Assembly (NCBI GenBank): GCA_038046645.1
Contig: JBBSVU010000017.1
Span: 1-52,038 of the forward strand
DNA from: an archaeon
GTDB taxonomy: Archaea > Iainarchaeota > Iainarchaeia > Iainarchaeales > 0-14-0-20-34-12
Direction: 5' to 3'
DNA length: 52,038 nucleotides
Below the pieces are notes generated by a model that did not search any database, was not told the origin of the DNA, and saw only the letters and a program-made list of their open reading frames with translations. Position 1 is the first letter of the stretch, and each line of letters opens with the position of its first letter. The position numbers were made by a program, and so were the translations under genes. Of the stretch, positions 4 to 37,069 are shown one piece after another.

Positions 4-984
4 TTATTCCCTGACTGCTTTTTTTGCTTTTTTGTCTTTATACATTTCGCTGTCAGCTTTTTCCATTAATGTTTCGTAAAGGTTGGTTACTGTTGATGGT
101 TCATAATCGCCCTTAAATGAAAACCCTATGGAAAATGTGGCAGTATGTGGGTCGGTTGGCGCCCTGTTCTGCTCCCATTTTCTTGCAAGCCTGTTTTCAA
201 GCTCCTGCTTTAACACAGCTGCTCCATGCCTTGCAGCGGAATTGGTTCCGCCTAATGGTAGGAGGATTGCAAATTCATCCCCACCTATTCTGCCGCATGT
301 AGCATGGTTTTTATTGGATAACTCCACAATTGTGTCTGCCGCGGCTTTAATTAAGCGGTCACCGGCATCATGGCCGTGCAAATCATTGGCTACTTTTAAA
401 TTGTTAAGGTCAATAAATACAAAAGCATAATTGCGATTTTCTGTGAGGTACATCCTTGCCCTTGCCTTAAAGCCGCCTTCGTTTAACAATCCTGTTTTAG
501 GGTCCCTTTCCCCGGCATTCACCACATCTATAATACTTCTGCCAATTAATCTTTCAGCAGCTTTTTTGGTTGTATCTAAAATAAATTTCCCATCACTTTC
601 ATTTGTCCTTGAATCCTTTTCTGCCCTTAATTTTCTTCTTTTAAATTTCTTGGGTTTTTTGCCTTCAGCAATTCGTCTTTCATTTATTTTTCTTAGCTGC
701 GTTTCCCTTTCTGCCCTTAATCTTTTTATGTATTCTGCATATGCCTCAGGGCTTTTGAAGCTGTCCTTGGCCCTTACAGGCGTGCTAAGCCTTTTTGTTT
801 TTCTTAATATATAATCAAGGACTTTATTTGAGGTATGCTGTGCAGCAACCCCTAAAGCCATTACCGACCCAGGCGGCAAATTAGCCCTTCTTCTATCTAC
901 TTCAGCTCTTTTTACTGCAGTATCCCCTATTACTATATGCCTTCTTTCCCCTAATCTTCTATTCATTGGCCGTTCTGGAGACAT
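4..984 (-). CDS. GGDEF-domain protein (putative diguanylate cyclase) with long basic N-terminal region
   Basis: D-x-x-TGLLN, FIDLNNLKVANDLHGHDAGD, GRIGGDEF, TFSIG and ADSEMYKDK motifs; about 155-aa Arg/Lys-rich N-terminus. Confidence 0.9.
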   Translation of the reverse strand: MSPERPMNRRLGERRHIVIGDTAVKRAEVDRRRANLPPGSVMALGVAAQHTSNKVLDYILRKTKRLSTPVRAKDSFKSPEAYAEYIKRLRAERETQLRKINERRIAEGKKPKKFKRRKLRAEKDSRTNESDGKFILDTTKKAAERLIGRSIIDVVNAGERDPKTGLLNEGGFKARARMYLTENRNYAFVFIDLNNLKVANDLHGHDAGDRLIKAAADTIVELSNKNHATCGRIGGDEFAILLPLGGTNSAARHGAAVLKQELENRLARKWEQNRAPTDPHTATFSIGFSFKGDYEPSTVTNLYETLMEKADSEMYKDKKAKKAVRE

Positions 985-1089
985 AATTAAATTAATAGGG
1001 AGAGCAAATTTAAATCTTTCTGTGGAAGATAACTTAGTTAATGCAGTTGAGAACAGCTGCCCATTTTAGTGTATTGTTAATTGATTATT

Positions 1090-23193: not shown

Positions 23194-24372
23194 ATGCCTG
23201 CTGTTAGTTCAAGTCCGCGGTTGAGAAGAGTTTCTGCAGTGAAGGATAGAGTTATCAGAAGATGCAGGCAAGTACCGCAGACTATTGCGCAAAAAGTTAA
23301 TGCTACCTGGGAAAAAACCAAACAGCACTACCGGTTTAGAATGCTAGTAAGAGAATTAAAAGCAAGAAAAGCATTTTTCGAAGAACATTCGTTTCCTTTT
23401 GGGGAATATTTTTCTTTAGCTAAGTCTTCTTCAGCCAGATTCAAACTTGGCCTTAATTTTTTTGAAAATGTTTGGCCGCACGCTGCATTTAATGGAATGG
23501 AAAATCAATTTCTTCTAGAAGCCTCTTTTCGTTCTGCAGAATTTTTTAAGGATAGTGCTGATGCAAAACAAAAAGCCGGGAAATTTGTAGCTGTCTTAAA
23601 ACAGTTAAGGCGAGACAGAAAGCATGTTAGTATTATAACTCTTTTAGACTTGTTTCGTAGGGTAAAGGGAGATTTTGGAGTTTTTGAAAAAAAGGGATCT
23701 TACCATAGATTGGTGAATATATTAAATGAACCCTTTCCATTTCAAAGGATTGAGGATTATCTAGCATCAATGGCAGAACATAAAACAGCGAGGCCTGAGC
23801 GCATAATTAAAGAAAAGGATAATCTTGGTTTAATTGGAAAGGAAATGGTTGGAATAGCAAGGCAAGATAATGTTGTTTTAAGGGTAATTGATAAGGAACA
23901 GTATGCTATCTGGAAGCAATTGTATGAAGAAGGGTTAAATGTAGAACCTATTTTGCCAGCGTCTTCAGACATAGCTGCTGAAACCAAGCTTAAGCCTAGG
24001 AGAAACCAAGTTTTTGTTAAGTCAAAGGTTGTTGGCAGGACGTTGGCTGATTTAATTCATAGCCGGAATTTAGATAGAACTCAGGTAAGGGCGATTGCAA
24101 GGCAAATGATGTCTACCATGGTAAAAGTATGGAAGCATGGTTATGTCCATAAACATCCTCATTTGTTTAATTGGTGTGTTGAATTCGAAGGCGCGCATCC
24201 AAAAGTAACCTTAATTGATTTCTCATTGGTAAAACAAGCCAGCGGTAGAGGCGAAATAATGAAAGATATTGAAAACTTTTCTTCAAAACTTAGTGAATTC
24301 CAAAGGATGTGCAACCAATTTGTTTTTAATCATCCTCAAAATGAAAAGTTAGAAAGAATGGCTTTTGGGTAA
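23194..24372 (+). CDS. orphan protein with basic leader and C-terminal RIO/Kdo-like kinase fold (atypical)
   Basis: GYVHKHPHLFN and TLIDF correspond to HxDxxxxN and DFG; ATG at 23194 after a TTTAATAA box. Confidence 0.65.
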   Translation: MPAVSSSPRLRRVSAVKDRVIRRCRQVPQTIAQKVNATWEKTKQHYRFRMLVRELKARKAFFEEHSFPFGEYFSLAKSSSARFKLGLNFFENVWPHAAFNGMENQFLLEASFRSAEFFKDSADAKQKAGKFVAVLKQLRRDRKHVSIITLLDLFRRVKGDFGVFEKKGSYHRLVNILNEPFPFQRIEDYLASMAEHKTARPERIIKEKDNLGLIGKEMVGIARQDNVVLRVIDKEQYAIWKQLYEEGLNVEPILPASSDIAAETKLKPRRNQVFVKSKVVGRTLADLIHSRNLDRTQVRAIARQMMSTMVKVWKHGYVHKHPHLFNWCVEFEGAHPKVTLIDFSLVKQASGRGEIMKDIENFSSKLSEFQRMCNQFVFNHPQNEKLERMAFG

Positions 24373-24469
24373 TAGTTTTATTTTTCCAACGTTTATTGAT
24401 GTAGTCCGGACTGGCATTTGGACCTGTTATTTATTCGAAATAAGGTTTTTATAAAGGTTCAGTTAATGT

Positions 24470-25567
24470 ATGTTTATGCGATTTATTCTCATAGTTACTT
24501 TGCTGGCGTTGGTAATTCTCGTTAGTGGCTGTACCGAAAAACAAATCAAATTTGACAAAGAACCATCAAACGGACCTGAAACTGAAACTCAGAATTCTTA
24601 TGATAAAAACAAAATTCCTGTGGGACCCCCCAAAGAAAATAAAGCGGAACTTCCTGAAGAAGATAAAAAAGATGCTCAAAACCCGCCTGAAGCGAAAGGG
24701 AAATTAATTCCTGCCGTTGTGCCTAAACAGATTGAAATCAAGCTCGCGGAATGGGCCAAAGAGGATGGAATAAGGATCGGTGGCGTCAGTTCCTCTACCC
24801 TGGTCAAAAACAAGGAGTATTGGATGTATTATACTGGCAATGGCATAGAATTGGCGAAGTCTTCTGACGGTTTAAACTTTGTTTACTATGGGAAATTAAT
24901 TGATGTAAAAGATGTTGAGGGAATAGACATGGTCACTAACCCTGCTGTTTTTGAAATGACTGATGGGAACTACAGAATGCTTTTCGAAGGCAGCAAAATG
25001 TTTGATAACAAAAATGACAGAAAACTCTATAGCGCAATTTCCTCAGATGGTTTGATTTGGAAAATAGAAGATGGTGTGAGGTTTCAGGATGTTGGCGATG
25101 GAAAGCCCGGGGAAATATTTACCTCAGTACCAGACATTATTAGATTGACTGATGGAAAATTGAGGATGTACTTTGCAAGAGGATTAACCTCTGCAACCGC
25201 AGTATCAAACGATGACGGCTTGACATGGACAAAAGAAACCAACCTTGAACTAGGGAAGATTGCACTAGACCCGGAGATTGTATTGCTGGAAGATGGCAAC
25301 TACAAACTTTTCTTCACGGCTTTTGAAGATGAGTTTGGAGTGGGCGAGCAATGGATTATGAGTGCTAGTTCATCTGACGGGATTGAATTTGTATTGGGCG
25401 AAGGAAAATTAATTGGGCCAAGCACTCCCGGTGGTTTGATTACCGATCCAGACATAGTAAAAGTTGACAATGGTTACAGAATGTACTACGGCGAATTCGA
25501 AAAGGGCGAACAGGGGATATATGGAAACGAGCCGCAGATAAAGAGTGCTTTTAGTTTTGGTAGTTGA
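24470..25567 (+). CDS. lipoprotein with repeated beta-propeller blades (glycoside hydrolase-like)
   Basis: VSGC lipobox; repeated P.(V/I)...DG.YRM(Y/F)..S.DG..W/F blades. Confidence 0.8.
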   Translation: MFMRFILIVTLLALVILVSGCTEKQIKFDKEPSNGPETETQNSYDKNKIPVGPPKENKAELPEEDKKDAQNPPEAKGKLIPAVVPKQIEIKLAEWAKEDGIRIGGVSSSTLVKNKEYWMYYTGNGIELAKSSDGLNFVYYGKLIDVKDVEGIDMVTNPAVFEMTDGNYRMLFEGSKMFDNKNDRKLYSAISSDGLIWKIEDGVRFQDVGDGKPGEIFTSVPDIIRLTDGKLRMYFARGLTSATAVSNDDGLTWTKETNLELGKIALDPEIVLLEDGNYKLFFTAFEDEFGVGEQWIMSASSSDGIEFVLGEGKLIGPSTPGGLITDPDIVKVDNGYRMYYGEFEKGEQGIYGNEPQIKSAFSFGS

Positions 25568-25596
25568 TATATCCAATAGGGCATATTGAGTTTGTA

Positions 25597-25669
25597 TGCA
25601 GCCGCCGGGATTCGAACCCGGATCAGAGCCTTGGGAAGGCCCGATGCTAGCCATTAACACCACGACTGC
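25597..25669 (-). tRNA. tRNA-Gly(CCC)
   Basis: GCAGTCG/CGGCTGC acceptor, gggcc-TTCCCAA-ggctc anticodon arm, GTTCGAATC T-loop. Confidence 0.95.
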
Positions 25670-25689
25670 ATTACAGATGATAAGCCATG

Positions 25690-26604
25690 CTATGTTTTAA
25701 AAAAATCTATGTTAGCGTACTCAATATCCTTATGCCTTGGAACCTGACCAGTTTCTTTATATTTGAAATATTTATATAAATGTTTTGGGTTATGTGGTCT
25801 GACTACTCTGAAAAATTCATCGATTTTTGATTTTGCAATAACATAAACTTGTTTTTGCAGCATAAATGGCTGCAACTTTAGTTCTTTTAGTACCTCAAAT
25901 ATTTCTTTAAGAAACTTCCTGCTATGGCTAGTTATTTCAATTTTGGCTGATTTTGGGTTATGCCTATGAAATCCACCGTCTGTGTCAAATACTCCTCTAA
26001 TAAATCCAATTTTCAATGCTTTCTTTTCAATTATTTTCTTAGGAATAGTTATCTTATTTTTCTTCTTGCCTATTGGAAACCCGAAGTTATTCACTAAAAA
26101 TTCTTGTAGTTCTTTAGAATAAACCATAGCTAAAATTTGTGATTTATTTTTTCCAGTAAATCTTATGCTTGGATTAACATTAAACAGGCTTTTGAATAGT
26201 GGGCAAATTACTGTAAGAATATATTTTTTATCTGAAATAGCGTTACTGCCTATTGCAATAGCATAATTAGTAGTTATACAACCATCCCCATATAAAGCAC
26301 CTAAAAATTCAGCTAATTTTTCATTGCATTTTGGAATCTTAATATGTTTTAGTTTATTTCTTATTTCAAGCAAAGGTAATTTTGAGTATTTAGATGTTGG
26401 TATTTCTGCTAGGTTGCACAAAATAAAAAATTTCACTAAAGGAATTTTGTGCATTCCGTTAACATATTTTATAACCATGCCTCTAGTTACTTTTAGTTTT
26501 TTAGCTAATGTTGCATATGACTTTTTGGTACGTATTTTAATGTCCCTTAGAATTAGTTTCTGAACATTTTTATTTAAGTTTAGATAATAATTGATAGTAG
26601 CCAT
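25690..26604 (-). CDS. free-standing HTH + LAGLIDADG endonuclease-like protein
   Basis: SYATLAKKLKVTRGMV HTH; AEFLGALYGDG and GFIRGVFDTDG motifs; TTTATATA box about 22 nt upstream. Confidence 0.85.
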   Translation of the reverse strand: MATINYYLNLNKNVQKLILRDIKIRTKKSYATLAKKLKVTRGMVIKYVNGMHKIPLVKFFILCNLAEIPTSKYSKLPLLEIRNKLKHIKIPKCNEKLAEFLGALYGDGCITTNYAIAIGSNAISDKKYILTVICPLFKSLFNVNPSIRFTGKNKSQILAMVYSKELQEFLVNNFGFPIGKKKNKITIPKKIIEKKALKIGFIRGVFDTDGGFHRHNPKSAKIEITSHSRKFLKEIFEVLKELKLQPFMLQKQVYVIAKSKIDEFFRVVRPHNPKHLYKYFKYKETGQVPRHKDIEYANIDFFKT

Positions 26605-26641
26605 TTACTGGATTAGTCTCTCTTAATATATAAACAATTTC

Positions 26642-26663
26642 GAAGAGTAGATTTCCCCTGAAT
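26642..26663 (-). repeat. 22-bp motif upstream of LAGLIDADG gene, copy 2
   Basis: ATTCAGGGGAAATCTACTCTTC. Confidence 0.85.
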
Positions 26664-26665
26664 GG

Positions 26666-26718
26666 CCCCTTTCTTTTCTTCATAAGAAAAGAAAGGCCCC
26701 AGGGTTCAAAGAAAAGAA
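26666..26718. repeat. 53-bp hairpin-containing dispersed repeat
   Basis: 47/53 identical to the reverse complement of 37526-37578. Confidence 0.85.
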
Positions 26719-26752
26719 AGAAAATCAGTTGCAATTAAAATCCAAAAGAAAA

Positions 26753-26878
26753 TTAAGTTGGTTTAATTTTTAATTTTGAAAATTGCTTTTCAGGGAGTGT
26801 GCAGAAGACAAAATTATCTTTTACTAATGCAGGCTTCATTGATTTAATTAATTTGTTCAAATCCTTTATTCCGCCCAT
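26753..26878 (-). pseudogene. truncated N-terminus of a DUF2241/ACT-domain protein
   Basis: MGGIKDLNKLIKSMKPALVKDNFVFCTL resembles the M.G..DL..L..SM.P.L....VFCT family start; stops after 41 aa at the repeat tract. Confidence 0.6.
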
Positions 26879-26887
26879 AAAACCCAA

Positions 26888-27871
26888 CTATTTTGATTTT
26901 TTATTCAAAAAGCCCAAACCAAAGCCATAAACCATTGCCAAATCCCGCAAAAATAGGATTGGCAGGCTGATGAATCCTATTTCCTGATTTCTGTCAATTA
27001 TGAATTTCACGGTTTTCAGCATCAGGACAATTGAAACAATAAATGCGCTAACTGCAAGGTGTGCAAACATTAAATGTGCTGGAGAAAGCACAGTAGAAAC
27101 CAAAAAAAGTGATATGGCTGCTAATTGTAATTTCAATTCCTGCGGAGTATATGAATCTTTCATCATCTTCTGCCTGTGTTTGCTGTATAAGGTAACACGC
27201 CAGTATGCATGCCCGAATTTTTTCTTCAAATATTTCTCTAAAGATTCAACATGCTTATGATATACAATTGCCTTTGGATTAAACATCAAGCGATATCCTT
27301 TTTCTGACAACCTATAGGATAAATCAGGGTCTTCACCTGATGCAATTTCAAAGCATGTATCAAAGCCGCCTTCTTTCAGGTAAATATCTTTTTTATATGC
27401 AGCAGAATAACTCCCAATCCAGTCCAAATGGTCTGCATTTTTCATTCGTTCATATCTTTCTTCTATTTCTAATTGAATAAACTTTGCGATTTTGGATTTT
27501 TGTTTTGTTTTATATGCGCCTTGAACTGCCACAACTTTTGTATCCGAGAAAGGTTTTACCATTTCTTCTAACCAATTTTTTTCTGCTTCACAGTCAGAAT
27601 CAGTAAAAACAATAATTTCATATTTTGCATTCTTAGCACCTAAATTCCTTGCAACAGCCGGCCCAGCATGTTGCTGTTCAAGCAATCTTATTTTTATATT
27701 TTTGGATTTGTTTTGGAATTCTTTTACAATTTCTTTTGTTTTGTCTGTTGAACCATCATCCACAAAAATAATTTCATAATCTTCTTTAAATGTTTGGTTT
27801 AGCAAAGACTCCAAACAAAGTTCAATTGTTTTTTCTGCATTGTAACAGGGGATAACGGCCGAAATTTTCAT
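26888..27871 (-). CDS. glycosyltransferase family 2
   Basis: IPCYN, VDDGSTD, ARNLG, FTDSD and GEDPDL motifs; C-terminal TM helices. Confidence 0.9.
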   Translation of the reverse strand: MKISAVIPCYNAEKTIELCLESLLNQTFKEDYEIIFVDDGSTDKTKEIVKEFQNKSKNIKIRLLEQQHAGPAVARNLGAKNAKYEIIVFTDSDCEAEKNWLEEMVKPFSDTKVVAVQGAYKTKQKSKIAKFIQLEIEERYERMKNADHLDWIGSYSAAYKKDIYLKEGGFDTCFEIASGEDPDLSYRLSEKGYRLMFNPKAIVYHKHVESLEKYLKKKFGHAYWRVTLYSKHRQKMMKDSYTPQELKLQLAAISLFLVSTVLSPAHLMFAHLAVSAFIVSIVLMLKTVKFIIDRNQEIGFISLPILFLRDLAMVYGFGLGFLNKKSK

Positions 27872-27878
27872 GATTATT

Positions 27879-28193
27879 TCACTTTTTTAAATTTCCGGCA
27901 TTTATTTTTTTTGCCCATTGCCTGTTTCTTTCAGCAGCATTACCTAATCTGTCCGCTTTTTTAGATAATTTTCCAGCTTTCCTTTCTTTGCTTTCGGCTC
28001 TTTTTTCAAGTGCTTTTGCATAGCTAGTATCGCCAATTATTTGCACTCTGGCCAAAGCTGCTTTGCGGGCATACTCCTTGCTGGCAGAAGCCACGGCATT
28101 AGAATCGGCACTTACTAAATTTCTTTTAAACTCAAGCTTTTTTGCCCGCCATTTCAACGCTTTGCTAATTGTTGACCTTAGTCTTGGTGACAT
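27879..28193 (-). CDS. small basic orphan protein
   Basis: MSPRLRS.. start; Lys/Arg/Ala-rich, probably helical. Confidence 0.6.
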   Translation of the reverse strand: MSPRLRSTISKALKWRAKKLEFKRNLVSADSNAVASASKEYARKAALARVQIIGDTSYAKALEKRAESKERKAGKLSKKADRLGNAAERNRQWAKKINAGNLKK

Positions 28194-28233
28194 TTTTATC
28201 ATCTCACAGTTTAGGATATTAACCTTTGATATA

Positions 28234-28989
28234 CTAATTATCAGAATCCTTCTCTTTATATCTTTTATCCAAAACCTCGCGAATCTTTTTTGCCTTTATT
28301 TTTCCCACACCTTCACACTCTGCCAATTCTTTTTCAGTTGCATTCATGAATCTGGTTACGTTGCCAAAATGTTTCAAAATATTTTTTGCTGTTTGCGGCC
28401 CAATCATTGGCAGCGATTCAACAACATACTGCTGTTCTTGTGCAATTGAGAATTTTGGCTTCTTTCCGTGCAGGCTGATCTCGCGATCTTTCCCTAATTG
28501 AAATCTTTTTGCAATCACATAAATGAATTCTGCTGTCTCAAATTCATCTGCAGCAAACAGCAGCGGAGTTTTATATTCCAAGCAGACTGCAGATAACGCA
28601 CCGATAATTGCATTCCTGTGAATATTTGATTCATAAAAAAGCATTTCAGGATTTCCTTCAAGAATAATTAGTGGCATTTCATAATTTTTGTTCATTGCCA
28701 TTATCTGGTTAAACAATCTTCTGTCAAGTAGGCTGCTTATAAAATCAGAAACAGTTTTCCTTTCAATCACAACGTCATTTGAAATAATATAATCCCCGAT
28801 TTCCAATTGTTTGATATTTACTTTACATTTAAAACGTTCTTCAAGGATTTTTACAATATTACAATTTCTTTCCCTTGTATCGGCATAGATTTCAATAACT
28901 TCAGGCTCGTCAGATTTCTTTACTGCCTGTTTTTTTGGTTTCGCCTTTTTTTCAATCTGAATTCTTGTTTGCACTTCTTCAATTTCCAT
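28234..28989 (-). CDS. ERCC4/XPF nuclease with HhH2 (Hef nuclease half)
   Basis: ADTRE, GDY..ERKT..DF, LPMIG and GVGKIKA motifs. Confidence 0.92.
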   Translation of the reverse strand: MEIEEVQTRIQIEKKAKPKKQAVKKSDEPEVIEIYADTRERNCNIVKILEERFKCKVNIKQLEIGDYIISNDVVIERKTVSDFISSLLDRRLFNQIMAMNKNYEMPLIILEGNPEMLFYESNIHRNAIIGALSAVCLEYKTPLLFAADEFETAEFIYVIAKRFQLGKDREISLHGKKPKFSIAQEQQYVVESLPMIGPQTAKNILKHFGNVTRFMNATEKELAECEGVGKIKAKKIREVLDKRYKEKDSDN

Positions 28990-29020
28990 AATCTCACACA
29001 GGATAATATATATTCTGTTT

Positions 29021-30649
29021 TTATTTAAATTCGAACAATTTTGTCTGCTTGTCTTTTGCTGCTTTCGGTTTTATTTCAGATTCTTCATCAAAAGCAGCAT
29101 CTTTTTGCATGCCTGAAAGTATTTTGTGCATTTTTTTCTCTTTATGGTGCGCAATCCAGTAATATGCCTCATCCCTAGTTCCTTTTGCCATCAATATAAT
29201 TACTTTCCCTTCATCTAACCTGCCTGTCCTTCCTCTTCTTTGTATTGTCCTTATTTCGCTTGGCACAGGCTCGAATAAAATAACCAGATCACAGCTTGGA
29301 ATATCCAAACCTTCTTCAGCGACCGATGTCGCTAAGAGAACATTGTATTCTCCTTGCCGGAATTTTAAAATTGTTTCTGATTGTTCATTTTGGGTCATTC
29401 CTTTTACAGTTCCTTTGTCTGCCTGCCCTACAAATTCCCTTGCCTTTATGATTTTTGAATCTTTCAAATGCAAATAAACATTCGTAATGGAATCACGGTA
29501 ATGGTTGAACACTAAAACCCTTGAATTTGGATTGTTTGCTAAATAATCTTCAAGAATATCCTTAAGTTTCTGGATTTTCGGGTGTTCAATCCCTTCTCTT
29601 TTCAATTTTTCAGTCAGCTGAACCGCTTTTTTTATTCTGTCATCATTCATTAGGCCTTTTACTGCCTTAGTCGCTTCCTTGTTCAGTATTTTCTGTTCAA
29701 GCCTGAAAAAATATTTATTCAAGGAATCAATTCCTTGGGTTTCAATTAAAATTAAGGAATGCATTACATTCATCATTGCCGCAATCTTGCTTGCTGCAGC
29801 AAATAAGCTTGGCTGTCTTCTACCCCGTATTGCCAAATTCCTTGAAACCTTCTTTTGCAGCACAAGAAGATTTTTTCTTGAGAAAAAATTCAGGTTATCT
29901 GTGTGTGAAACGCCCATTCTGTGCAATTCTGCAGCTTTTTCTGCCAGATACTGCTTGAAAAGCAAAATTATTTCATTAAATTCTTTTGGCAAATCAACCG
30001 GAACATATTCAACATTGATTTCTTTCACATATTCTCTTACATCCTCATCCTTATGTGTCCTTACCTCAATGTTTTTGATGAAAAGATTGTCCGCAATCTT
30101 CTGAATCTTCTCCTTTTCCCAGCCTGGCGAGGCTGTCAGGGCAACAACAAGTGGATTTTTAGCTGTTTCTGAATAATTCTTTGAAACAAACACATAACTG
30201 TAATTGCCAATAGCCCTATGTGCCTCATCAAAAACACAAAGCGAAACATTTTCTAGGGAAATTAATCCTTTTTTTACATCATTTGCGATGCATTGAGGTG
30301 TTGAACAGATTATTTTTGAATTTTCAAACATTTTTTGCCTTTCTTTTGGCTTTATTGTTCCAGTAATGCAGCAAATCTCTTCTTCTTTTACTTTTGTGAA
30401 TCTAAAAAATGATTTTTGATGCTGCAAAGCTAATGGCCTGGTAGGGGCTAGTATCAAAATTTTGGATTCTGGGAATTTTTCAATCCTTTTTACTCCGATT
30501 ACTACTGCCAAAATTGTTTTTCCCAAAGCTGTTGGGGCTACAACCAGTGAATTGCCTTTTTCCAGAACACTTGAAACAATATCTTCCTGATATTGTCTTG
30601 ATTCTATTGTATTTTCCTTTATTAACGCGTGATTAACAAAATTTTCCAT
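29021..30649 (-). CDS. Hef/FANCM-like SF2 helicase (helicase half)
   Basis: PTALGKT, DEAH, TASPG, TSVAEEGLDIP and QRRGRTGR motifs; C-terminal QTKLFEF PIP-like box. Confidence 0.93.
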   Translation of the reverse strand: MENFVNHALIKENTIESRQYQEDIVSSVLEKGNSLVVAPTALGKTILAVVIGVKRIEKFPESKILILAPTRPLALQHQKSFFRFTKVKEEEICCITGTIKPKERQKMFENSKIICSTPQCIANDVKKGLISLENVSLCVFDEAHRAIGNYSYVFVSKNYSETAKNPLVVALTASPGWEKEKIQKIADNLFIKNIEVRTHKDEDVREYVKEINVEYVPVDLPKEFNEIILLFKQYLAEKAAELHRMGVSHTDNLNFFSRKNLLVLQKKVSRNLAIRGRRQPSLFAAASKIAAMMNVMHSLILIETQGIDSLNKYFFRLEQKILNKEATKAVKGLMNDDRIKKAVQLTEKLKREGIEHPKIQKLKDILEDYLANNPNSRVLVFNHYRDSITNVYLHLKDSKIIKAREFVGQADKGTVKGMTQNEQSETILKFRQGEYNVLLATSVAEEGLDIPSCDLVILFEPVPSEIRTIQRRGRTGRLDEGKVIILMAKGTRDEAYYWIAHHKEKKMHKILSGMQKDAAFDEESEIKPKAAKDKQTKLFEFK

Positions 30650-30769
30650 ATACAACCAGTTTTCTGCCTTATTTTAAGGAATAGCAAACTATTTAAATTC
30701 CTTTTATCAATATAAACCTATAATAAACTTATTCAATGTGTTTTTACACATTGTTATCGGAGGAATAAT

Positions 30770-30982
30770 ATGGTAGAATTGCCAACAGCCGCAGTTGATA
30801 GGGTAATTAGAAAAGGCGGTGCTGTCAGAGTAAGCGAAGGGGCAGCAAGAGCCTTGGCTGAACATTTGGAAGAGGAAGGAATCAAGGTAGCACAAAAAGC
30901 AGTCAGCTTTGCCACTCATGCAAAGAGAAGGACTGTTACAGAAGAAGATATCCGCTTAGCGGTAAAAACAAAGGAAGTTTAA
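30770..30982 (+). CDS. archaeal histone
   Basis: ELPTAAVDRVIRK.GA.RVS and HAKRRTV..EDI motifs; GGAGG SD. Confidence 0.95.
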   Translation: MVELPTAAVDRVIRKGGAVRVSEGAARALAEHLEEEGIKVAQKAVSFATHAKRRTVTEEDIRLAVKTKEV

Positions 30983-31026
30983 ACTTCCTTCTTTTATCCT
31001 ATTTTAGGATTAATTTGGGTATTATA

Positions 31027-31614
31027 TTAATTTCTAATTAATTTCTGGATTCTTTTATCCACTTCTTTAAACACTTCATCTTCACCCAGCTTGTCTGTAT
31101 TCAAGACAACATCAAATGGATTAAAATCCCTGCCAAAGTCAATGCCATAAAGCTTTTTGTAGATCTTTTTATCTGTCTCAAGCCTTTCTTTCATCTGCTT
31201 GAGCAAAGGTTTCCAATTTTTCTTGTCTCTGCCTGCAGCCCTTTTTGCCCTTGCTGTTGGGGAAGCATCAATCCAAACCTTAATCAGGCCTTTTTTCTTA
31301 GCAAGCCATGGCATGGTTCTTGAATCCACAATCAAATTATCCTGTTTTCTGATAGTTTCAAGCAGTTTCTTATCCAGCAGCTTATCAAGCTTCATATCCT
31401 TCAATCTTTCCTGATTGTATTTTTTGCCGGCAGCAGATTCCCACCAGCCTTCCCCCTTTTTTGTTTTAGTTACATCAATCCTATCTGCATTTTTATCTTT
31501 CAAATCCTTCAGGATGCTGGAAGCAAAAACAGTTTTCAATTTATACTTAGCAGCAAGCTTCTCCACAAGCGTGCTTTTACCAGAACCCGGCAAACCGCAG
31601 ATAATGAGAATCAT
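31027..31614 (-). CDS. cmk: cytidylate kinase (archaeal type)
   Basis: GLPGSGKST and YKKLYGID motifs. Confidence 0.85.
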   Translation of the reverse strand: MILIICGLPGSGKSTLVEKLAAKYKLKTVFASSILKDLKDKNADRIDVTKTKKGEGWWESAAGKKYNQERLKDMKLDKLLDKKLLETIRKQDNLIVDSRTMPWLAKKKGLIKVWIDASPTARAKRAAGRDKKNWKPLLKQMKERLETDKKIYKKLYGIDFGRDFNPFDVVLNTDKLGEDEVFKEVDKRIQKLIRN

Positions 31615-31649
31615 AGTATTATCATAACTCTTTTGTTTTTAATATTTCC

Positions 31650-31928
31650 TCACCTTCTATAAATATCGTCATGATGCTGCAAATCCTCAAACCTTATTTT
31701 CTGGCTTTTTTTGTCAAACTTGAATATCATGACAAAATGGGAATCTATGTGAACCCTTTTGAATTCTTTTAAATCATGTGAAAGGTTCTTGTAATGTTCA
31801 ATATCTTCGCTTGAGCAGATCTCATCAATCTTTTTTAGGGTTATTTCAAATCTAGTCTTGTCTTTTTTGGAAAGTTTTTTTAGGATCTTTTGCAGTTTAT
31901 TGCTGATCTCAAAATTATGCCCTTTCAA
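31650..31928 (-). CDS. RelE/YafQ-family toxin
   Basis: HYKNL..KRVHI..HHDDIY pattern; overlaps the upstream antitoxin. Confidence 0.8.
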   Translation of the reverse strand: MKGHNFEISNKLQKILKKLSKKDKTRFEITLKKIDEICSSEDIEHYKNLSHDLKEFKRVHIDSHFVMIFKFDKKSQKIRFEDLQHHDDIYRR

Positions 31929-32157
31929 GCTCTTTCCTCAATTCTTCAACATTTGAAAAAGCCTTGAACTTTCCTTTGTCCACTTTTAGGAGTTTTTCCT
32001 TGTATTCAGGCCTTAATTCTGGTTCTAAGAGGGTTTGTTCATATTTTTGTATGACTAAGTTAATGGCTTCTGATTTATTTTTCAAGCCATACTTACCTTT
32101 TACGATGTTTAATATCCTATCTTGTTCTTCTTGGATAGTTATTACTGCTTGGACCAT
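31915..32157 (-). CDS. DUF2683-like antitoxin
   Basis: MVQA..ILNIVK.KYGLK.KSEAI..LEPELRPEY pattern. Confidence 0.8.
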   Translation of the reverse strand: MVQAVITIQEEQDRILNIVKGKYGLKNKSEAINLVIQKYEQTLLEPELRPEYKEKLLKVDKGKFKAFSNVEELRKELERA

Positions 32158-32233
32158 TAAGATCACCTATTATTATTAGTAATGAAATATAATAAAAAGT
32201 TATGTTTTGTAATGTTTATGAAATAATGTACAT

Positions 32234-33067
32234 TCAGAATTCAATATGGTCAGCATCTCCAACAACAATTCTGCCTAAATTTGTATTCGGGTTAACTACA
32301 ACAAAAAAGCATTTTTTTATTTCTTCATTTAAATCTGCCTTTTTACTGTGTCTGCCCAATTCGCTCATCTTAACGCCAGCCCGCACTAATGTAAAATAAT
32401 GTTTCTTGAATTGTTTTTGCAAAGATATGCCATTTTTTACTTGACTCATATCAAATCCGGAAAATTCTTTAACCTTAAATTTGCCATTTTGAGAAAGATC
32501 TTCAACCACGATTCCATCCATGCCCCCCTCGAATCGCATGGTTCTTGCAAATCCCACAGCAGGAATCCCTAAAGAAGCAATTCTTTGCATTGCTTTCTGC
32601 TCATTTTCCAAAAATTTAAATCTGCCAGGTTTTAAGAAAATAGTGCCATCAAAAAATTCAGCATTTTGCCCATGCCTTGATAGTTCGATAACTGGAGATT
32701 TTGCTTTTTTTGACAAAGCTAGTTTATGAAGATTGACCATTAAGTCAGGCAATCTATATACTTTTAATGCAAGCATCATTTTTTTACCTGTTTTTGGATC
32801 TCTAACAGGGTTCAATGAGAGCACTACCCTTCCTTGCCCAATGCCTAAAATCCGGCTATCTGCTTTCGTGAAGTAGCCCTTGCGCATATCTGAAAAAATC
32901 TGGCCATTCCCCGCTAAAATAGCAGCATCTGAAATAGAATTTAATGCAGTTGACCCTCTTCTCGCAGCTTCTTTTGCAATCCTTCTCCTTGGCCTACTTG
33001 ATTTAATCCTGTGCCTTTGCTTTTTTGGCAAAGTTGAAAGATTAACCCTTCGTGGAATTTTCGGCAT
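32234..33067 (-). CDS. orphan protein with basic leader and degenerate kinase-like fold
   Basis: LGIGQGRVV Gly-loop, LALKV, helix-C Glu (ENE), VVEDL hinge and terminal VGDAD. Confidence 0.55.
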   Translation of the reverse strand: MPKIPRRVNLSTLPKKQRHRIKSSRPRRRIAKEAARRGSTALNSISDAAILAGNGQIFSDMRKGYFTKADSRILGIGQGRVVLSLNPVRDPKTGKKMMLALKVYRLPDLMVNLHKLALSKKAKSPVIELSRHGQNAEFFDGTIFLKPGRFKFLENEQKAMQRIASLGIPAVGFARTMRFEGGMDGIVVEDLSQNGKFKVKEFSGFDMSQVKNGISLQKQFKKHYFTLVRAGVKMSELGRHSKKADLNEEIKKCFFVVVNPNTNLGRIVVGDADHIEF

Positions 33068-33214
33068 ATTACTTATTATTAATCAAAATCTATTTATAAT
33101 ACTTAAATCTACCTTCTATGAGTAATCAAAAACAATTCAATCAGTGTGTTGCATGATATTTATCAAATATGCAATATATTTGTTTTATATGCGCAACACA
33201 CCGCTGGTGATTCT

Positions 33215-34435
33215 ATGAAGTATGAGGATTTTATTGATGAACATTACAAACCAAAAAAGACCGATTTAATTTGTAAATTCAGGTTGAAAGCAAAAGGCTT
33301 TACATTTGAAAAAGCTGCTGGCGGGGTTTCTGCAGAATCAACAATTGGAACATGGACAGAATTGACAACAGAAAAAGAATATATGAGAAAGCTAGCAGGA
33401 ATTGTTTTTGAATTGAAAAACCCTTATTTTTCAGTGGCATATCCAATTGAATTGTTTGAAGAAGGAAATATGCCAAATATGCTTTCAGGCATTGCAGGCA
33501 ATTTATTTGGCTTGAAAGAGATTGATAAGGTAAGGTTAGAGGATATTATTTTCCCAAAAAAATTGGCAAAAAGTTTCAAAGGCCCAAAATATGGGATTAA
33601 TGGGGTAAGAAAAATCACAAGGGTAAAGAACAGGCCGCTTGTCGGAACAATTGTAAAACCAAAATTAGGGCTGAATTTTAAAGATCATGCTAAGGTAGCA
33701 TATGACGCATGGTTTGGGGGCTGTGATGTTGTAAAGGATGATGAAAATCTTTCCTCACAATCATTCAACAGGTTTGAGCCGAGGTTGAAAGAAACCTTGC
33801 GGTTGAAAAGAAAAGCAGAAAAGGAAACTGGTGAATTTAAGGCATATATGATTAATGTTACTGCATCTGGAAATGAGATGATTAGAAGGGCAAGGCTTGT
33901 TGAAGATTCAGGCAATGAATATATGATGGTTGATATTCTGACAGTTGGATGGGCAGCATTGCAGGATTTGCGGGATTTAAATGTTAATTTAGTAATGCAT
34001 GCACATAGGGCGGGGCATGCAGCTTTAACAAAAGATAAAGAACACGGAATTTCAATGCCTGTGCTTGCAAAATGTTCTCGCCTGATTGGGGTTGACCAAT
34101 TGCACGTAGGTACAGCTGTTGGAAAAATGTCAGAAGGAAAATCTGATGTTCTTGAAAATATTAAAGCCTGCAAGGAAGAGCTTTATGGAATAAAAAAAGT
34201 GATGCCTGTTGCTTCTGGTGGTCTGCACCCAGGGCATGTTGAAGATTTATACAAAATATTTGGAAAAGATTTCATTGCACAGGCAGGCGGAGGAATCCAT
34301 GGGCATCCGCAAGGTACAGTAAAAGGCGCTATGGCTATGAGGCAGGCTATGGATGCAGTTGTTCAAGGTTACACATTGAAAGAATATGCTAAAAAGCATA
34401 AAGAATTAGCAATTGCTTTGGAGAAATGGAAATAA
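33215..34435 (+). CDS. rbcL: form III ribulose-1,5-bisphosphate carboxylase
   Basis: AESTIGTW, GTIVKPKLG, KDDENL, HAHRAGH, GKM, SGGLHP and GGGIHGHP motifs; GGTGA SD before ATG 33215. Confidence 0.95.
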   Translation: MKYEDFIDEHYKPKKTDLICKFRLKAKGFTFEKAAGGVSAESTIGTWTELTTEKEYMRKLAGIVFELKNPYFSVAYPIELFEEGNMPNMLSGIAGNLFGLKEIDKVRLEDIIFPKKLAKSFKGPKYGINGVRKITRVKNRPLVGTIVKPKLGLNFKDHAKVAYDAWFGGCDVVKDDENLSSQSFNRFEPRLKETLRLKRKAEKETGEFKAYMINVTASGNEMIRRARLVEDSGNEYMMVDILTVGWAALQDLRDLNVNLVMHAHRAGHAALTKDKEHGISMPVLAKCSRLIGVDQLHVGTAVGKMSEGKSDVLENIKACKEELYGIKKVMPVASGGLHPGHVEDLYKIFGKDFIAQAGGGIHGHPQGTVKGAMAMRQAMDAVVQGYTLKEYAKKHKELAIALEKWK

Positions 34436-34453
34436 TTTCCATTTCAAATCCTT

Positions 34454-34762
34454 TTATTTGTTTTTTACTGAAAGTATCTTTAATCCATCAAGTTCTGGTT
34501 TAATTAAAACCTCTTCTTTTTCCTTAAATGAGTATAATTTTGCAATGTCGTTCGGGAATCTTATTCCAATTCCTGTTCCAATCCTAATTATTTTTACTTC
34601 TTTGTTCATATTTTCCCTTAATTTACTTAAACCATCATCTAATTTTTTGTTGTCAGTAATGTTAAATCCGCATTTTTCACAGGTATGTGATTCTATCTCA
34701 ACCCCATAACCAACATCAAATTTTATTGGCTTCATTTTATTTTTACATTGTGTACATTTCAT
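34454..34762 (-). CDS. zinc-ribbon + AbrB-like protein (putative antitoxin)
   Basis: CTQC...CEKC; KIIRIGTGIGIRFP AbrB-type motif. Confidence 0.7.
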   Translation of the reverse strand: MKCTQCKNKMKPIKFDVGYGVEIESHTCEKCGFNITDNKKLDDGLSKLRENMNKEVKIIRIGTGIGIRFPNDIAKLYSFKEKEEVLIKPELDGLKILSVKNK

Positions 34763-34764
34763 AA

Positions 34765-35004
34765 TTATCTTCTCATCCTGAATGCATTTATAACCCAAAT
34801 AAAGTTCTCGTCTTTTTTAATATGGACTTCTGTGGCAAAATCTCCAAATATTTTAACAAAAGTAAACCTGTTCTTGCCATATTGGCTGTTTAATCTTATT
34901 TTGTTTGGACTCAGTATGGTTACAACTACTAGATCCCAGGGAACATTATCGTGGAATGCCAAATAATGTTGAGTAGGCCTTATAGTTACTTTTGATACAA
35001 TCAA
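34765..35004 (-). CDS. small putative toxin (DUF4258/BrnT-like)
   Basis: T.H...VPW...WVINAF pattern; directly upstream of the zinc-ribbon/AbrB gene. Confidence 0.5.
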   Translation of the reverse strand: MIVSKVTIRPTQHYLAFHDNVPWDLVVVTILSPNKIRLNSQYGKNRFTFVKIFGDFATEVHIKKDENFIWVINAFRMRR

Positions 35005-35040
35005 AACACCACGAATCCATATAGTATATTTTTGAGTATA

Positions 35041-35370
35041 TTAATTAATATACTTTTTGCAGAACCCATTTCTCCTTATTTCATACCTTGCATAATTCCT
35101 TTTGACCCCTGTAATCCGTTTTCTCATTCCATCTAGCCATCCAGGATTTATTTTGTAATAAAAAGACTCTCTTAGCAGCACATTTTCATTAAGCATCATG
35201 CGGGAATATTTCTGCACGGCTTGGTATGTTACCCGCATTCCATGTTTTTGTGTCAGCCTTTGGTGCATCCCTTTTGCGGATAATGGCCATTCCCAGCATA
35301 ATAAAAAAACAATCCAGTCAGCAACAGACCTTTTGCCCCTTTTTGGCGATTGAACAAAAGCAAGATCCAT
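35041..35370 (-). CDS. small winged-helix protein
   Basis: EWPLSAK..VTYQAV..Y.IN..W wHTH pattern. Confidence 0.6.
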   Translation of the reverse strand: MDLAFVQSPKRGKRSVADWIVFLLCWEWPLSAKGMHQRLTQKHGMRVTYQAVQKYSRMMLNENVLLRESFYYKINPGWLDGMRKRITGVKRNYARYEIRRNGFCKKYIN

Positions 35371-35489
35371 ACCTAACTCTTGTTTCTGATTTATTTAAAC
35401 CAGATTCAGGAAAAATTTGGAAAAATATAAAGAAAGCAGGTAGAAACGTAAAATATTTATATTACTTTGCCCTAAATAGCTTTGGTAAC

Positions 35490-35948
35490 ATGCCATTAAC
35501 CTCGATTGATGTAAGAATCCTGAATTGCCTGGTTGAAAATCCGGATGCCAATTATAAGGATATTTCAAAGAAATTAAGCATTTCTTCCCAAACTGTTTAT
35601 AATCGTTTGAATTCAATGAAAACAGAAAAAATCCTTGAAGGCCTTATCCCAAAAATTAATCTTGAGAAAGCAGGCTATCTGACAAAGGCAATAATACTTT
35701 TCAATACTGATTTGAAGGAAAAGTCCTCGCTGATAAAGACTCTTTCAAACAGGCACAATATTGTAAGCATCCTTGAAGTTTCCGGGCCATTTAATGTGGC
35801 ATTAATTGCCTGCCTGAAATCAACAAAAGAATTGCATTCATTGGTGAAAGAACTGAGTGAAAATGATATGGTTTCAGAGGTTGAAACCCATATTGTTTAC
35901 AATACTTTTAAGGATAGTGTAATCCCATTCCCTCTGGCTGAAAAATAA
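35490..35948 (+). CDS. Lrp/AsnC family transcriptional regulator
   Basis: D.RIL..L, ISKKLSISSQTVYNRL HTH and VSGPFN; ATG at 35490. Confidence 0.88.
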   Translation: MPLTSIDVRILNCLVENPDANYKDISKKLSISSQTVYNRLNSMKTEKILEGLIPKINLEKAGYLTKAIILFNTDLKEKSSLIKTLSNRHNIVSILEVSGPFNVALIACLKSTKELHSLVKELSENDMVSEVETHIVYNTFKDSVIPFPLAEK

Positions 35949-36033
35949 GTATAAACAGTAGTGCTATTATACTACGAGAAAATAATCCTATTTTTATTAT
36001 TATGACCACAATGTTTATTAGAAAGGTAAGAAT

Positions 36034-36717
36034 ATGCGAAGAATTCCATCAAATAAAAAAAGAAATCTTGCTAGGAAAAAGTATGCTAAGCCAGAAGTAA
36101 TTACTGCAACAGGCCATAAAGCACGAACCTACTCTTCAGCAATCAGGTATGGGTTAAGAAGAGGCAGAAAAAACCTTGAGTTTTATTCAAGGGAAAATGT
36201 TGACCCAGATAGATTAGCGATGCAGTGGGAATTGCTCGAATCCGGAATCCCAGTCGAAGAACCATTTGAAAGAAAGCCAAAAGGCCCAAATCGCCTGATG
36301 GGTTATTTTTCTATGGGTGATGCCACAGTAGAAGATGTTCTGGAGAGATTAAGTCCAAAAGAAAAGCGCAGCGTTGCCAAGCAGATGATCAGCCTAATTT
36401 CAAGAATTCATAATAAGGGCATGATATTTAAACATCCGCACTTGCAGAATATTGCAATTCAAAAAGGACGGGTTAGAATAGGGCTATTTGACTTCAAATT
36501 AATTAGCAGAGTAAATGTAGACTGGCATAATCCAAAAAGCATTTTTGATTCATTTCGTGTTGAATATGGCACTTTAAGGAATAATATGATTAAGTTAGGA
36601 TTGAGTTTAGCTGAACAAGAAAGCCTATTTGAAGCGCTTATCTCAAGGTATGCTAGGTTACCAAATACTGAGAAAAGTAATTTATATCAATTAGTGAGAA
36701 CAAGAGTGTTGCTTTAA
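36034..36717 (+). CDS. orphan protein with basic leader and RIO/Kdo-like kinase fold (atypical)
   Basis: GIPVEEP, IHNKGMIFKHPHLQNI and LFDF motifs. Confidence 0.65.
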   Translation: MRRIPSNKKRNLARKKYAKPEVITATGHKARTYSSAIRYGLRRGRKNLEFYSRENVDPDRLAMQWELLESGIPVEEPFERKPKGPNRLMGYFSMGDATVEDVLERLSPKEKRSVAKQMISLISRIHNKGMIFKHPHLQNIAIQKGRVRIGLFDFKLISRVNVDWHNPKSIFDSFRVEYGTLRNNMIKLGLSLAEQESLFEALISRYARLPNTEKSNLYQLVRTRVLL

Positions 36718-36734
36718 TGCAACAATAAATGTGA

Positions 36735-37004
36735 TTATTGAACATTGGCAGCCCTTGCCCTTCTTATTGATTCATCCAATTCCCCGAAATATAATTCATC
36801 GGCCTTCCTTTTGTCAATTCTTCCAGAATCCAAATCAGACCTTATCAATCGAACATTCATTCTGAATTTAGGATCATGCCGCATCCTTTCCTGCCCAAAT
36901 TCCCAAAATGCGCTTTTCATCTTCCACAATTGTGGTTTCCAAATCAAGCGCTCAACATCCCTTCTTCGGTATCTTGGCCTTAATATTTTTACTTTAGGAA
37001 TCAT
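36735..37004 (-). CDS. small basic orphan protein
   Basis: MIPKVKILRPRYRRR start; TTTATA box about 25 nt upstream. Confidence 0.55.
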   Translation of the reverse strand: MIPKVKILRPRYRRRDVERLIWKPQLWKMKSAFWEFGQERMRHDPKFRMNVRLIRSDLDSGRIDKRKADELYFGELDESIRRARAANVQ

Positions 37005-37069
37005 CAATTAAAATACGCTTTTGTTCTATAAATAGGTTTCTTACCCTTAAATCAACTAAGCAGATTATT

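Follow-up and report, generated by a model that had tools for sequence, protein, structure and literature searches.

A dispersed class of arginine-rich proteins with a basic N-terminal tail in Iainarchaeota and its possible role in delivery to bacteria

The N-terminal signals of type III secretion effectors are defined by composition, disordered and free of motifs, and they precede unrelated enzymatic cargo that includes minimal kinases and turns over rapidly. These signals are rich in Ser and Thr, not in Arg. The substrates of type IV secretion carry basic tails, which are read by VirD4/TrwB coupling proteins. Both systems are compared here with a class of Arg-rich proteins from an archaeon of the phylum Iainarchaeota. 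Six genes of the class, each beginning with a basic N-terminal tail (the leader), lie in the window, which denotes the whole analysed stretch of 52,038 nucleotides of contig JBBSVU010000017.1 and was archaeal by its rRNA matches. The class was similar to type III effectors in its motif-free N-terminus, varied cargo, possible minimal kinases and rapid turnover, whereas its leader was Arg-rich, its producer was an archaeon, its presumed target was bacterial, and the export gate FlhA/SctV (PF00771) was found in none of five genomes. Positive charge and basic C-termini were shared with type IV secretion, and HerA/FtsK/TrwB-clade and VirB11-type ATPases that may serve such a role were present. However, the larger bias and a Pro mark were N-terminal in the genome of the window, and no VirB4-type CagE_TrbE (PF03135) was detected in the five genomes, although divergent forms could escape this search. 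Mitochondrial presequences and Arg-rich cell-penetrating peptides also have an Arg-rich, acid-poor and motif-free N-terminus; the class differed in its weak amphipathicity, the lack of cleavage evidence and the basic character of the whole protein.

Bacterial-type sigma-70 factors (fam00359) and murein enzymes, namely large transglycosylases, have been reported in DPANN genomes, and the question was raised there whether some DPANN may have bacterial hosts (PMC8204110). In that paper, sigma was regarded as a possible regulator of the archaeon itself, mainly in Woesearchaeota, and the transglycosylases were giant and extracellular; a common leader, an Arg-rich class or the idea of delivery was not seen in its available text. 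Short, sensor-less GGDEF proteins like the one in the window were described in metagenome-assembled genomes (MAGs) of DPANN archaea, and three of the seven MAG proteins tested gave a riboswitch signal in E. coli (PMC13725321). They were interpreted as native archaeal c-di-GMP signalling, and the available text mentions neither Iainarchaeota/Diapherotrites nor positive charge. Secreted archaeal peptidoglycan hydrolases, of which 68% had no known signal peptide, are a further case of archaeal proteins aimed at bacteria (PMC12352652). Those hydrolases kill their targets and carry Sec/Tat signals or may be exported by contractile injection, whereas most cargo of the present class was cytoplasmic and regulatory and no contractile injection sheath (PF04984) was found in the five genomes. 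Hence, DPANN sigma factors, GGDEF proteins and murein enzymes are already published singly. A full-text literature search, with most subscription papers outside its reach, gave no title or abstract describing the leader or the class, and an injection route from an archaeon to a bacterium was not found in the literature searched.

The extent of the class was evaluated in genome-wide gene sets. Genes were called with an own hexamer model, which gave 1,170 genes in the genome of the window (G000, 89% complete) and 1,172 genes in 1.20 of the 1.24 Mb of a genome from another Iainarchaeota family (G017; genes at tile edges were lost). A BLAST match between G000 and G017 denoted conservation, and at least three Arg with a net charge of at least +4 denoted a basic leader. 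The leader occurred in 74 of 499 no-hit proteins versus 22 of 421 conserved proteins in G000 (p 1e-6), and in 66 of 472 versus 27 of 422 in G017 (p 3e-4). For a non-circular test, proteins were selected on a body Arg content of at least 7% alone, and the N-terminus was ranked among the segments of the same protein. The non-conserved Arg-rich-body proteins of G000 (n = 105) had an N-terminal net charge of 4.6 versus 1.7 per 25 body residues (median percentile 0.95, p 4e-10). The charge percentile was 0.46 for conserved Arg-rich proteins (n = 27, p 0.51) and 0.53 for Arg-poor soluble non-conserved proteins (n = 328). The same result was obtained in G017 (n = 97, percentile 0.79, p 4e-8) and in 572 kb of a congener, G001 (n = 35, percentile 0.91, p 2e-4). 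The first-pass annotation of the window had staked its proposal of a shared leader on a difference from the proteome background, and this difference was strong genome-wide.

Under the working rule, G000 had 73 class genes and G017 had 66. Those of G000 represented 61 BLAST families, indicating that the tail sits on unrelated cargo. They were dispersed with mild clustering (13 adjacent pairs versus 4.6 expected), and 51 were first in their unit. Pro was found at position 2 in 30% of the class versus 8%, and acidic residues were depleted across the first ~15 residues. The Arg content of the bodies was 9.3%, compared with 3.8% in conserved proteins, and over its full length the chain carried a positive charge of +6 to +7 per 100 residues. 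An amphipathic helix was also considered as the signal; it was rejected because it was weak and was not repeated in G017.

The leader could be a functionless by-product, either the tail end of the bias of young or foreign Arg-rich genes or the effect of wrong start codons. The poor conservation of the class genes, the lack of a motif and the use of starts from our own gene caller are in favor of this explanation, which was largely refuted by the following results and is now very improbable. The GC content at third codon positions (GC3) was 0.29 for the class group versus 0.33 for conserved genes, and the Arg codons of the class were AGA/AGG, as in its own genome; a high-GC donor was therefore rejected. 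Non-conserved genes outside the class were Arg-poor (3.1-3.4%). Phage origin was rejected as well, because none of 40 class members matched a PHROG family. The ratio of nonsynonymous to synonymous substitution rates (dN/dS) was 0.29 in the leader (confidence interval 0.18-0.41; 216 codons, 9 orthologue pairs), 0.26 in the body and 0.09 in conserved genes. Nine of 11 pairs were used; of the two doubtful pairs excluded, one was a wrong pairing of a tRNA synthetase and the other a coiled-coil protein with a leaderless orthologue. As judged from these substitution patterns, the leader was shown to be coding protein under selection. It was also retained across loci of 31-55% GC. Wrong start codons were countered by the orthologue starts, the leader dN/dS and the TATA-anchored starts, which agreed independently. 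Thus, the downstream starts that might have explained the leader away were ruled out, and homologues kept their leaders even at 20-30% identity. Inspection of the 10 non-self loci retrieved with the 36034 kinase (23-35% identity) showed N-termini rich in Lys and Arg; in two of these loci, this held only when a later ATG was taken as the start. Orthologues were found for 11 of the 73 class genes versus 222 of 438 conserved genes, with a median identity of 63% versus 85%. The evolution of the class, fast and with high turnover, would therefore be effector-like.

A Pfam match (E ≤ 1e-3) was obtained for 15 of the 72 class proteins scanned in G000. The domains were sigma70 regions 2 and 4, SLT, RelA_SpoT, HD, HATPase_c, GGDEF, two methyltransferases, aminotransferase, HEAT, HTH and LAGLIDADG-HTH, plus one housekeeping false positive. 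NCBIfam added a third sigma factor, described the HD protein as c-di-GMP-phosphodiesterase-like (HD-GYP-like) and described the SLT protein as MltC-like. The class cargo of G017 comprised sigma, a weak GGDEF, four methyltransferases, a transglutaminase and HTH proteins, with four housekeeping false positives among 53 proteins. Part of the cargo is bacteria-specific, a point overlooked in the first-pass annotation, and this part appears to point to a bacterial target. Sigma-70 depends on the core RNA polymerase of bacteria and SLT on peptidoglycan, and both carry the leader; it is thus hardly probable that the proteins are exported to another archaeon or to mixed hosts, even though activity in archaea is conceivable for the kinases, methyltransferases and HTH proteins and all cultured DPANN have archaeal hosts (10.1101/2023.02.24.529834).

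The sigma protein of C7:13597-14313 contained regions 2 and 4 and matched TIGR02937 with 43 bits (cut-off 42.9), its best match being FliA/WhiG-like, while the other two copies in G000 gave weak matches under the cut-off. Among the aligned sigma proteins (16% mean identity), which had been selected by the same profile, the best-kept column was the Gln of D-x-x-Q, a segment that we take to be the core-binding patch. Region 2 of the FliA-like protein was predicted on the clamp helices of E. coli beta-prime (residues 259-298), with a score of 0.81 versus 0.00 for the best control, a contact agreement of at least 81% and a partner pLDDT (predicted local distance difference test) of at least 79. 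Of 157 solved pairs, 116 attained the score mark, compared with 2 of 215 mismatched pairs; because like complexes are already solved, the prediction may reflect likeness only. A PDB sequence search with the FliA-like protein gave no match. Its single-sequence model was poor (pLDDT 56), and the Foldseek matches were weak but mostly sigma factors (best E 5e-3).

Two internal controls were available in G000. Two long RelA/SpoT proteins were Arg-poor and leaderless, whereas the short RelA-like protein had the leader. Similarly, a signal-peptide-type SLT protein was Arg-poor and leaderless, whereas the class SLT protein carried the leader plus a membrane anchor. Therefore, a bacterial-type domain alone does not give the leader. 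Members of the family of the long RelA/SpoT-type proteins (C6:19864-21732 and C7:27775-29526) occurred in 93 of 121 genomes of Iainarchaeota, an unusual finding among archaea.

The cargo also bears on whether the class consists of in-house accessory regulators, in which the basic tail and the Arg-rich body would tether repurposed bacterial domains to DNA, RNA or polyphosphate of the archaeon itself. Many members had HTH domains or basic repeats, basic tails are typical of nucleic-acid-binding proteins, and the phylum retains its own long RelA/SpoT. DPANN sigma and GGDEF genes were likewise taken as the archaeon's own regulation in the accessible parts of PMC8204110 and PMC13725321. Nevertheless, this explanation is unlikely. 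The conserved Arg-rich proteins of G000 had no N-terminal excess, and the transglycosylase, the receiver-less His-kinase-like protein, the kinases and the aminotransferase share no need for DNA tethering. RpoA-CTD and both c-di-GMP receptor families tested (PilZ and MshEN) were not found in G000, where the absence of partners is not proven because the genome is 89% complete; RpoA-CTD was also missing from all five other near-complete genomes. Moreover, rapid gene turnover fits conflict better than core regulation.

The distribution of the leader was followed across the phylum. GGDEF was present in 45 of 151 genomes; 17 of the 45 were from one genus, and these kin are not independent. Sigma70_r2 was detected in 28 and SLT in 32 of 121 genomes. 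Among the phylum GGDEF loci with TATA-anchored starts, 26 of 30, the window gene included, had a net charge of at least +4. The remaining four loci were Arg-poorer, and a quick tree placed them in neither of the two groups that bear the leader. Under a stricter first-ATG rule, the leader was found on 20 of 29 phylum GGDEF proteins versus 16 of 122 long GGDEF proteins from outside. For sigma, the values were 17 of 24 phylum proteins (one identical copy dropped) versus 2 of 95 outside hits. In the quick tree, 24 of the 29 phylum GGDEF sequences formed one long-branch clade with the window protein apart, although the outgroup was biased toward the window protein; this topology suggests two GGDEF acquisitions in the phylum. 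Matches to the kinase profile were obtained in 56 of 81 genomes, a count that was not used because the weak ~200-aa matches probably include housekeeping Bud32, and a protein-database search with this profile gave five matches. The short stand-alone GGDEF proteins P0003, P0010, P0034, P0041, P0050 and P0104 had an N-terminal ERR...DRR segment in common with the protein of window:4-984, and often a similar N-terminus starting with Pro/His. The class may extend to other lineages.

The route by which the class proteins could leave the cell was explored next to the known export signals. A hydrophobic h-region of the Sec type was present in none of the six window proteins (best 11-residue hydropathy ≤ 0.85), in agreement with the first-pass annotation, and a hydrophobic N-terminus was found in 2 of 82 non-conserved leader proteins. 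For Tat, no h-region was seen in the six proteins and TatC was found in none of six genomes. A pattern scan for class III (pilin) signal peptides gave 17 pilin-like genes in G000, none of them in the class. The class thus fell outside every export class tested here. Two related class proteins of G017 (L026:11277-11960, minus strand, and L062:1994-2692, plus strand) had a Tat-like TRRKFI motif and a hydrophobic stretch, and no TatC was found in G017; they could use the Tat system of a host.

If the proteins were released by lysis, vesicles or a simple pore, they could act as self-penetrating weapons, with the Arg-rich chain taking them into nearby bacteria unaided, and neither a machine nor a fixed host would be needed. 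The Arg-rich chain with both ends basic, the failure to find a known injection machine and the published antibacterial peptidoglycan hydrolases of archaea (PMC12352652, as far as its text is available) are consistent with this. We consider it improbable. Cargo such as sigma factors, c-di-GMP enzymes and methyltransferases would manipulate a cell and not kill it, Sec or Tat signals for release were lacking, and the unaided uptake of folded proteins of 30-60 kDa across a cell wall is inefficient.

Possible components of a machine were encoded in both genomes. Four VirB11/PilB-type ATPases, at least 17 pilin-like genes and two extra proteins of the HerA/FtsK/TrwB clade were present in G000. A region of ~60 kb in G017 (L046-L049) encoded an ATPase of the VirB11 type and its large TadC-like partner, together with pilins, an acidic Zn-ribbon protein, small membrane proteins, several Ig/carboxypeptidase-regulatory surface proteins of 2,200-2,950 aa and a HerA/TrwB-clade protein without Walker A. 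Its counterpart parts in G000 were located at C1:650-66790 and C19:995-7170, with the acidic Zn-ribbon protein at C1:3593-4546, the HerA-like protein at C1:65303-66790 and the VirB11-type ATPase at C19:3349-7170, and the Walker-A-less protein was single-copy in 41 of 41 genomes. This pilus, giant-surface-protein and HerA locus is a candidate attachment or delivery apparatus. The second extra HerA/FtsK-clade ATPase of G000 (C11:22943-24241) had an intact Walker A, was 67% identical in G017 and occurred besides the canonical HerA.

The reading that we favor, by a little over even chances, is that the basic N-terminal tail acts as an export signal and that the exported proteins are effectors bound for a bacterial host. 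The class and its tail, the selection on it, its distribution in Iainarchaeota and the domains of its cargo were shown above. The first-pass annotation had proposed a signal for effector delivery; its effector part was strengthened by cargo whose partners (RpoA-CTD, PilZ, MshEN, FtsW/RodA and the receiver domain) were not found in G000, while for the export signal we infer the following scheme. Attachment of the archaeon would rely on giant surface proteins and type IV pili. The disordered basic tail would be read by an ATPase of the FtsK/HerA/TrwB clade or of the VirB11 type, which would thread the chain N-terminus first, and this contact-dependent machine would deliver the class proteins to the cytoplasm of the host, which is likely bacterial. 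The positive charge of the whole chain would favor entry into a negative-inside cell. Inside the host, sigma factors may redirect RNA polymerase, GGDEF and HD-GYP-like proteins may reset c-di-GMP, and the RelA-like protein may alter (p)ppGpp. Kinases and methyltransferases would modify host molecules, and the transglycosylase with the leader and membrane anchor would remodel the wall.

Several observations weigh against the export of effectors to bacteria. No sequence motif beyond composition was found in the leader, and its amphipathicity was weak (z 2.7 in G000 and 1.0 in G017). The first-pass annotation placed the bias in the leader, which was indeed basic; however, the body and the C-terminus were basic as well, so a separate signal is not proven. 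The class rule was fixed after the data had been seen, with housekeeping false positives of at least 1 in 73 in G000 and 4 in the 53 scanned in G017. No Pfam match at the above threshold was found for 57 of the 72 scanned proteins; the bacterial target therefore rests on eight G000 proteins. Some cargo domains work in archaea, as the frequency of long RelA/SpoT in the phylum illustrates, and archaeal GGDEF proteins are published (PMC13725321, available text). The missing partners were sought in an incomplete genome. No known delivery machine was found, and the candidate ATPases are tied to the class by plausibility alone. Furthermore, Iainarchaeota are described as putatively free-living in the available text of PMC12892359.

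Whether archaea parasitize bacteria is an open question according to the accessible part of PMC8204110. A class defined by its leader provides one way to account for the puzzling scatter of sigma factors, GGDEF proteins and murein enzymes across these genomes, and it covers ~6% of a proteome otherwise hypothetical. If the favored export reading is true, proteins would be delivered from an archaeon to a bacterium by a signal that matches no archaeal export route tested here. On a wider view, to which we assign an even chance, Iainarchaeota would be archaeal parasites or predators of bacteria that inject 50-100 effectors, among them sigma factors and second-messenger enzymes of their own, via a new pilus/HerA-type machine reading the basic N-terminal tail; the tail would then allow effector sets, and hence host types, to be predicted from DPANN genomes.

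The features of the window are listed in Table 1. All six reading frames reported in the first pass were recovered with their starts and N-termini, and its guess of a DPANN archaeon was borne out by a 79%-identical relative of the 23194 protein in Ca. Diapherotrites. This orthologue shared the start and the leader. The net charges of residues 2-26 were +4, +7, +8, +9, +8 and +7 in the six proteins, values that ranked at the 82nd-98th percentile within the proteome; for the 28193 gene, the calculation used an ATG three codons upstream, at 28202. The six genes had been called unrelated singletons, which was incorrect, since 23194 and 36034 were paralogues of each other and of a third gene on C7, and two paralogues of 33067 lay on C6. 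A TATA element ~25 nt upstream had been proposed as a mark of the class. A strict TATA word was found at -28 to -32 in three of the six genes, and genome-wide it was equally common in class genes (28 of 73) and in conserved first-in-operon genes (86 of 262), so it does not mark the class. The reported lack of a Shine-Dalgarno sequence was a real depletion (9 of 73 class versus 84 of 262 conserved genes), but it was modest, and the 36034 gene has an AAGG word.

Table 1. Positions of class genes and associated elements in the window
Feature	Coordinates	Strand	Description
GGDEF class member	4..984	-	326 aa; basic leader, helical linker, sensor-less GGDEF domain (residues 160-322)
Leader of the GGDEF gene	907..984	-	codons 1-26, net +4
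TATA-like box	1009..1014	-	30 nt upstream of the GGDEF ATG; leaderless-type promoter, not class-specific
Kinase-like class member	23194..24372	+	392 aa; basic leader, N-terminal extension, Bud32/RIO-like kinase domain (HKHPHLFN..IDF)
Small basic class member	27879..28193	-	104 aa; start 28193 backed by congener orthologue
Truncated kinase-like class member	32234..33067	-	277 aa; basic leader; predicted fold stops just past the DFG-like position
TATAAA	33093..33098	-	31 nt upstream of the 33067 ATG
Kinase class member	36034..36717	+	227 aa; kinase fold nearest Bud32/PRPK
Small Arg-rich class member	36735..37004	-	89 aa; 69%-identical orthologue with the same start
TTTATA	37027..37032	-	28 nt upstream of the 37004 ATG

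The GGDEF domain noticed in the first pass was confirmed for the 4-984 protein by Pfam (E 4e-22, 79 bits, cut-off 23.8) and TIGR00254 (75 bits, cut-off 37.4). The catalytic motifs DLNNLK and RIGGDEF were intact, so the protein is, judging by its motifs, a putative GGDEF diguanylate cyclase; no RxxD I-site was seen ahead of GGDEF. Three kinase-like folds had been proposed. That of the 36034 protein was upheld by an AlphaFold model, which matched a KEOPS chain of Bud32/PRPK size in Foldseek (E 3e-6, template modelling (TM) score 0.55), and that of the 23194 protein by paralogy. For the 33067 protein, kinase likeness was a lead only, with ESM Atlas TM scores of 0.43-0.47, below the naming threshold; an OspG-family cluster also came up as a lead only. 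In the 36034/23194 family, His replaced the catalytic Asp of HxDxxxxN (HxHPHxxN) in eight of nine aligned members, so these proteins lack the usual catalytic Asp and are probably pseudokinases or enzymes of altered chemistry. Residues 1-47 of the 36034 protein had a pLDDT below 50 in the AlphaFold model and were likely disordered, and in the low-confidence single-sequence model of the FliA-like sigma protein most of residues 1-31 were also below 50. No family was found for the 27879-28193 protein in Pfam, NCBIfam or PHROG, nor for the 36735-37004 protein.

The ESM Atlas feature cluster nearest to the 32234-33067 protein was a hypothetical family whose few classified members were mostly from Minisyncoccota (Patescibacteria), a hint that these bacteria carry minimal kinases of this kind. 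Among the other genes of the window, a LAGLIDADG/HTH gene (window:25596-26604) ended 20 nt ahead of a tRNA-Gly. Judged by translation, window:18272-19570 was an apparent fusion of AdoMet decarboxylase and spermidine synthase, and window:33146-34435 was a RuBisCO-like gene.

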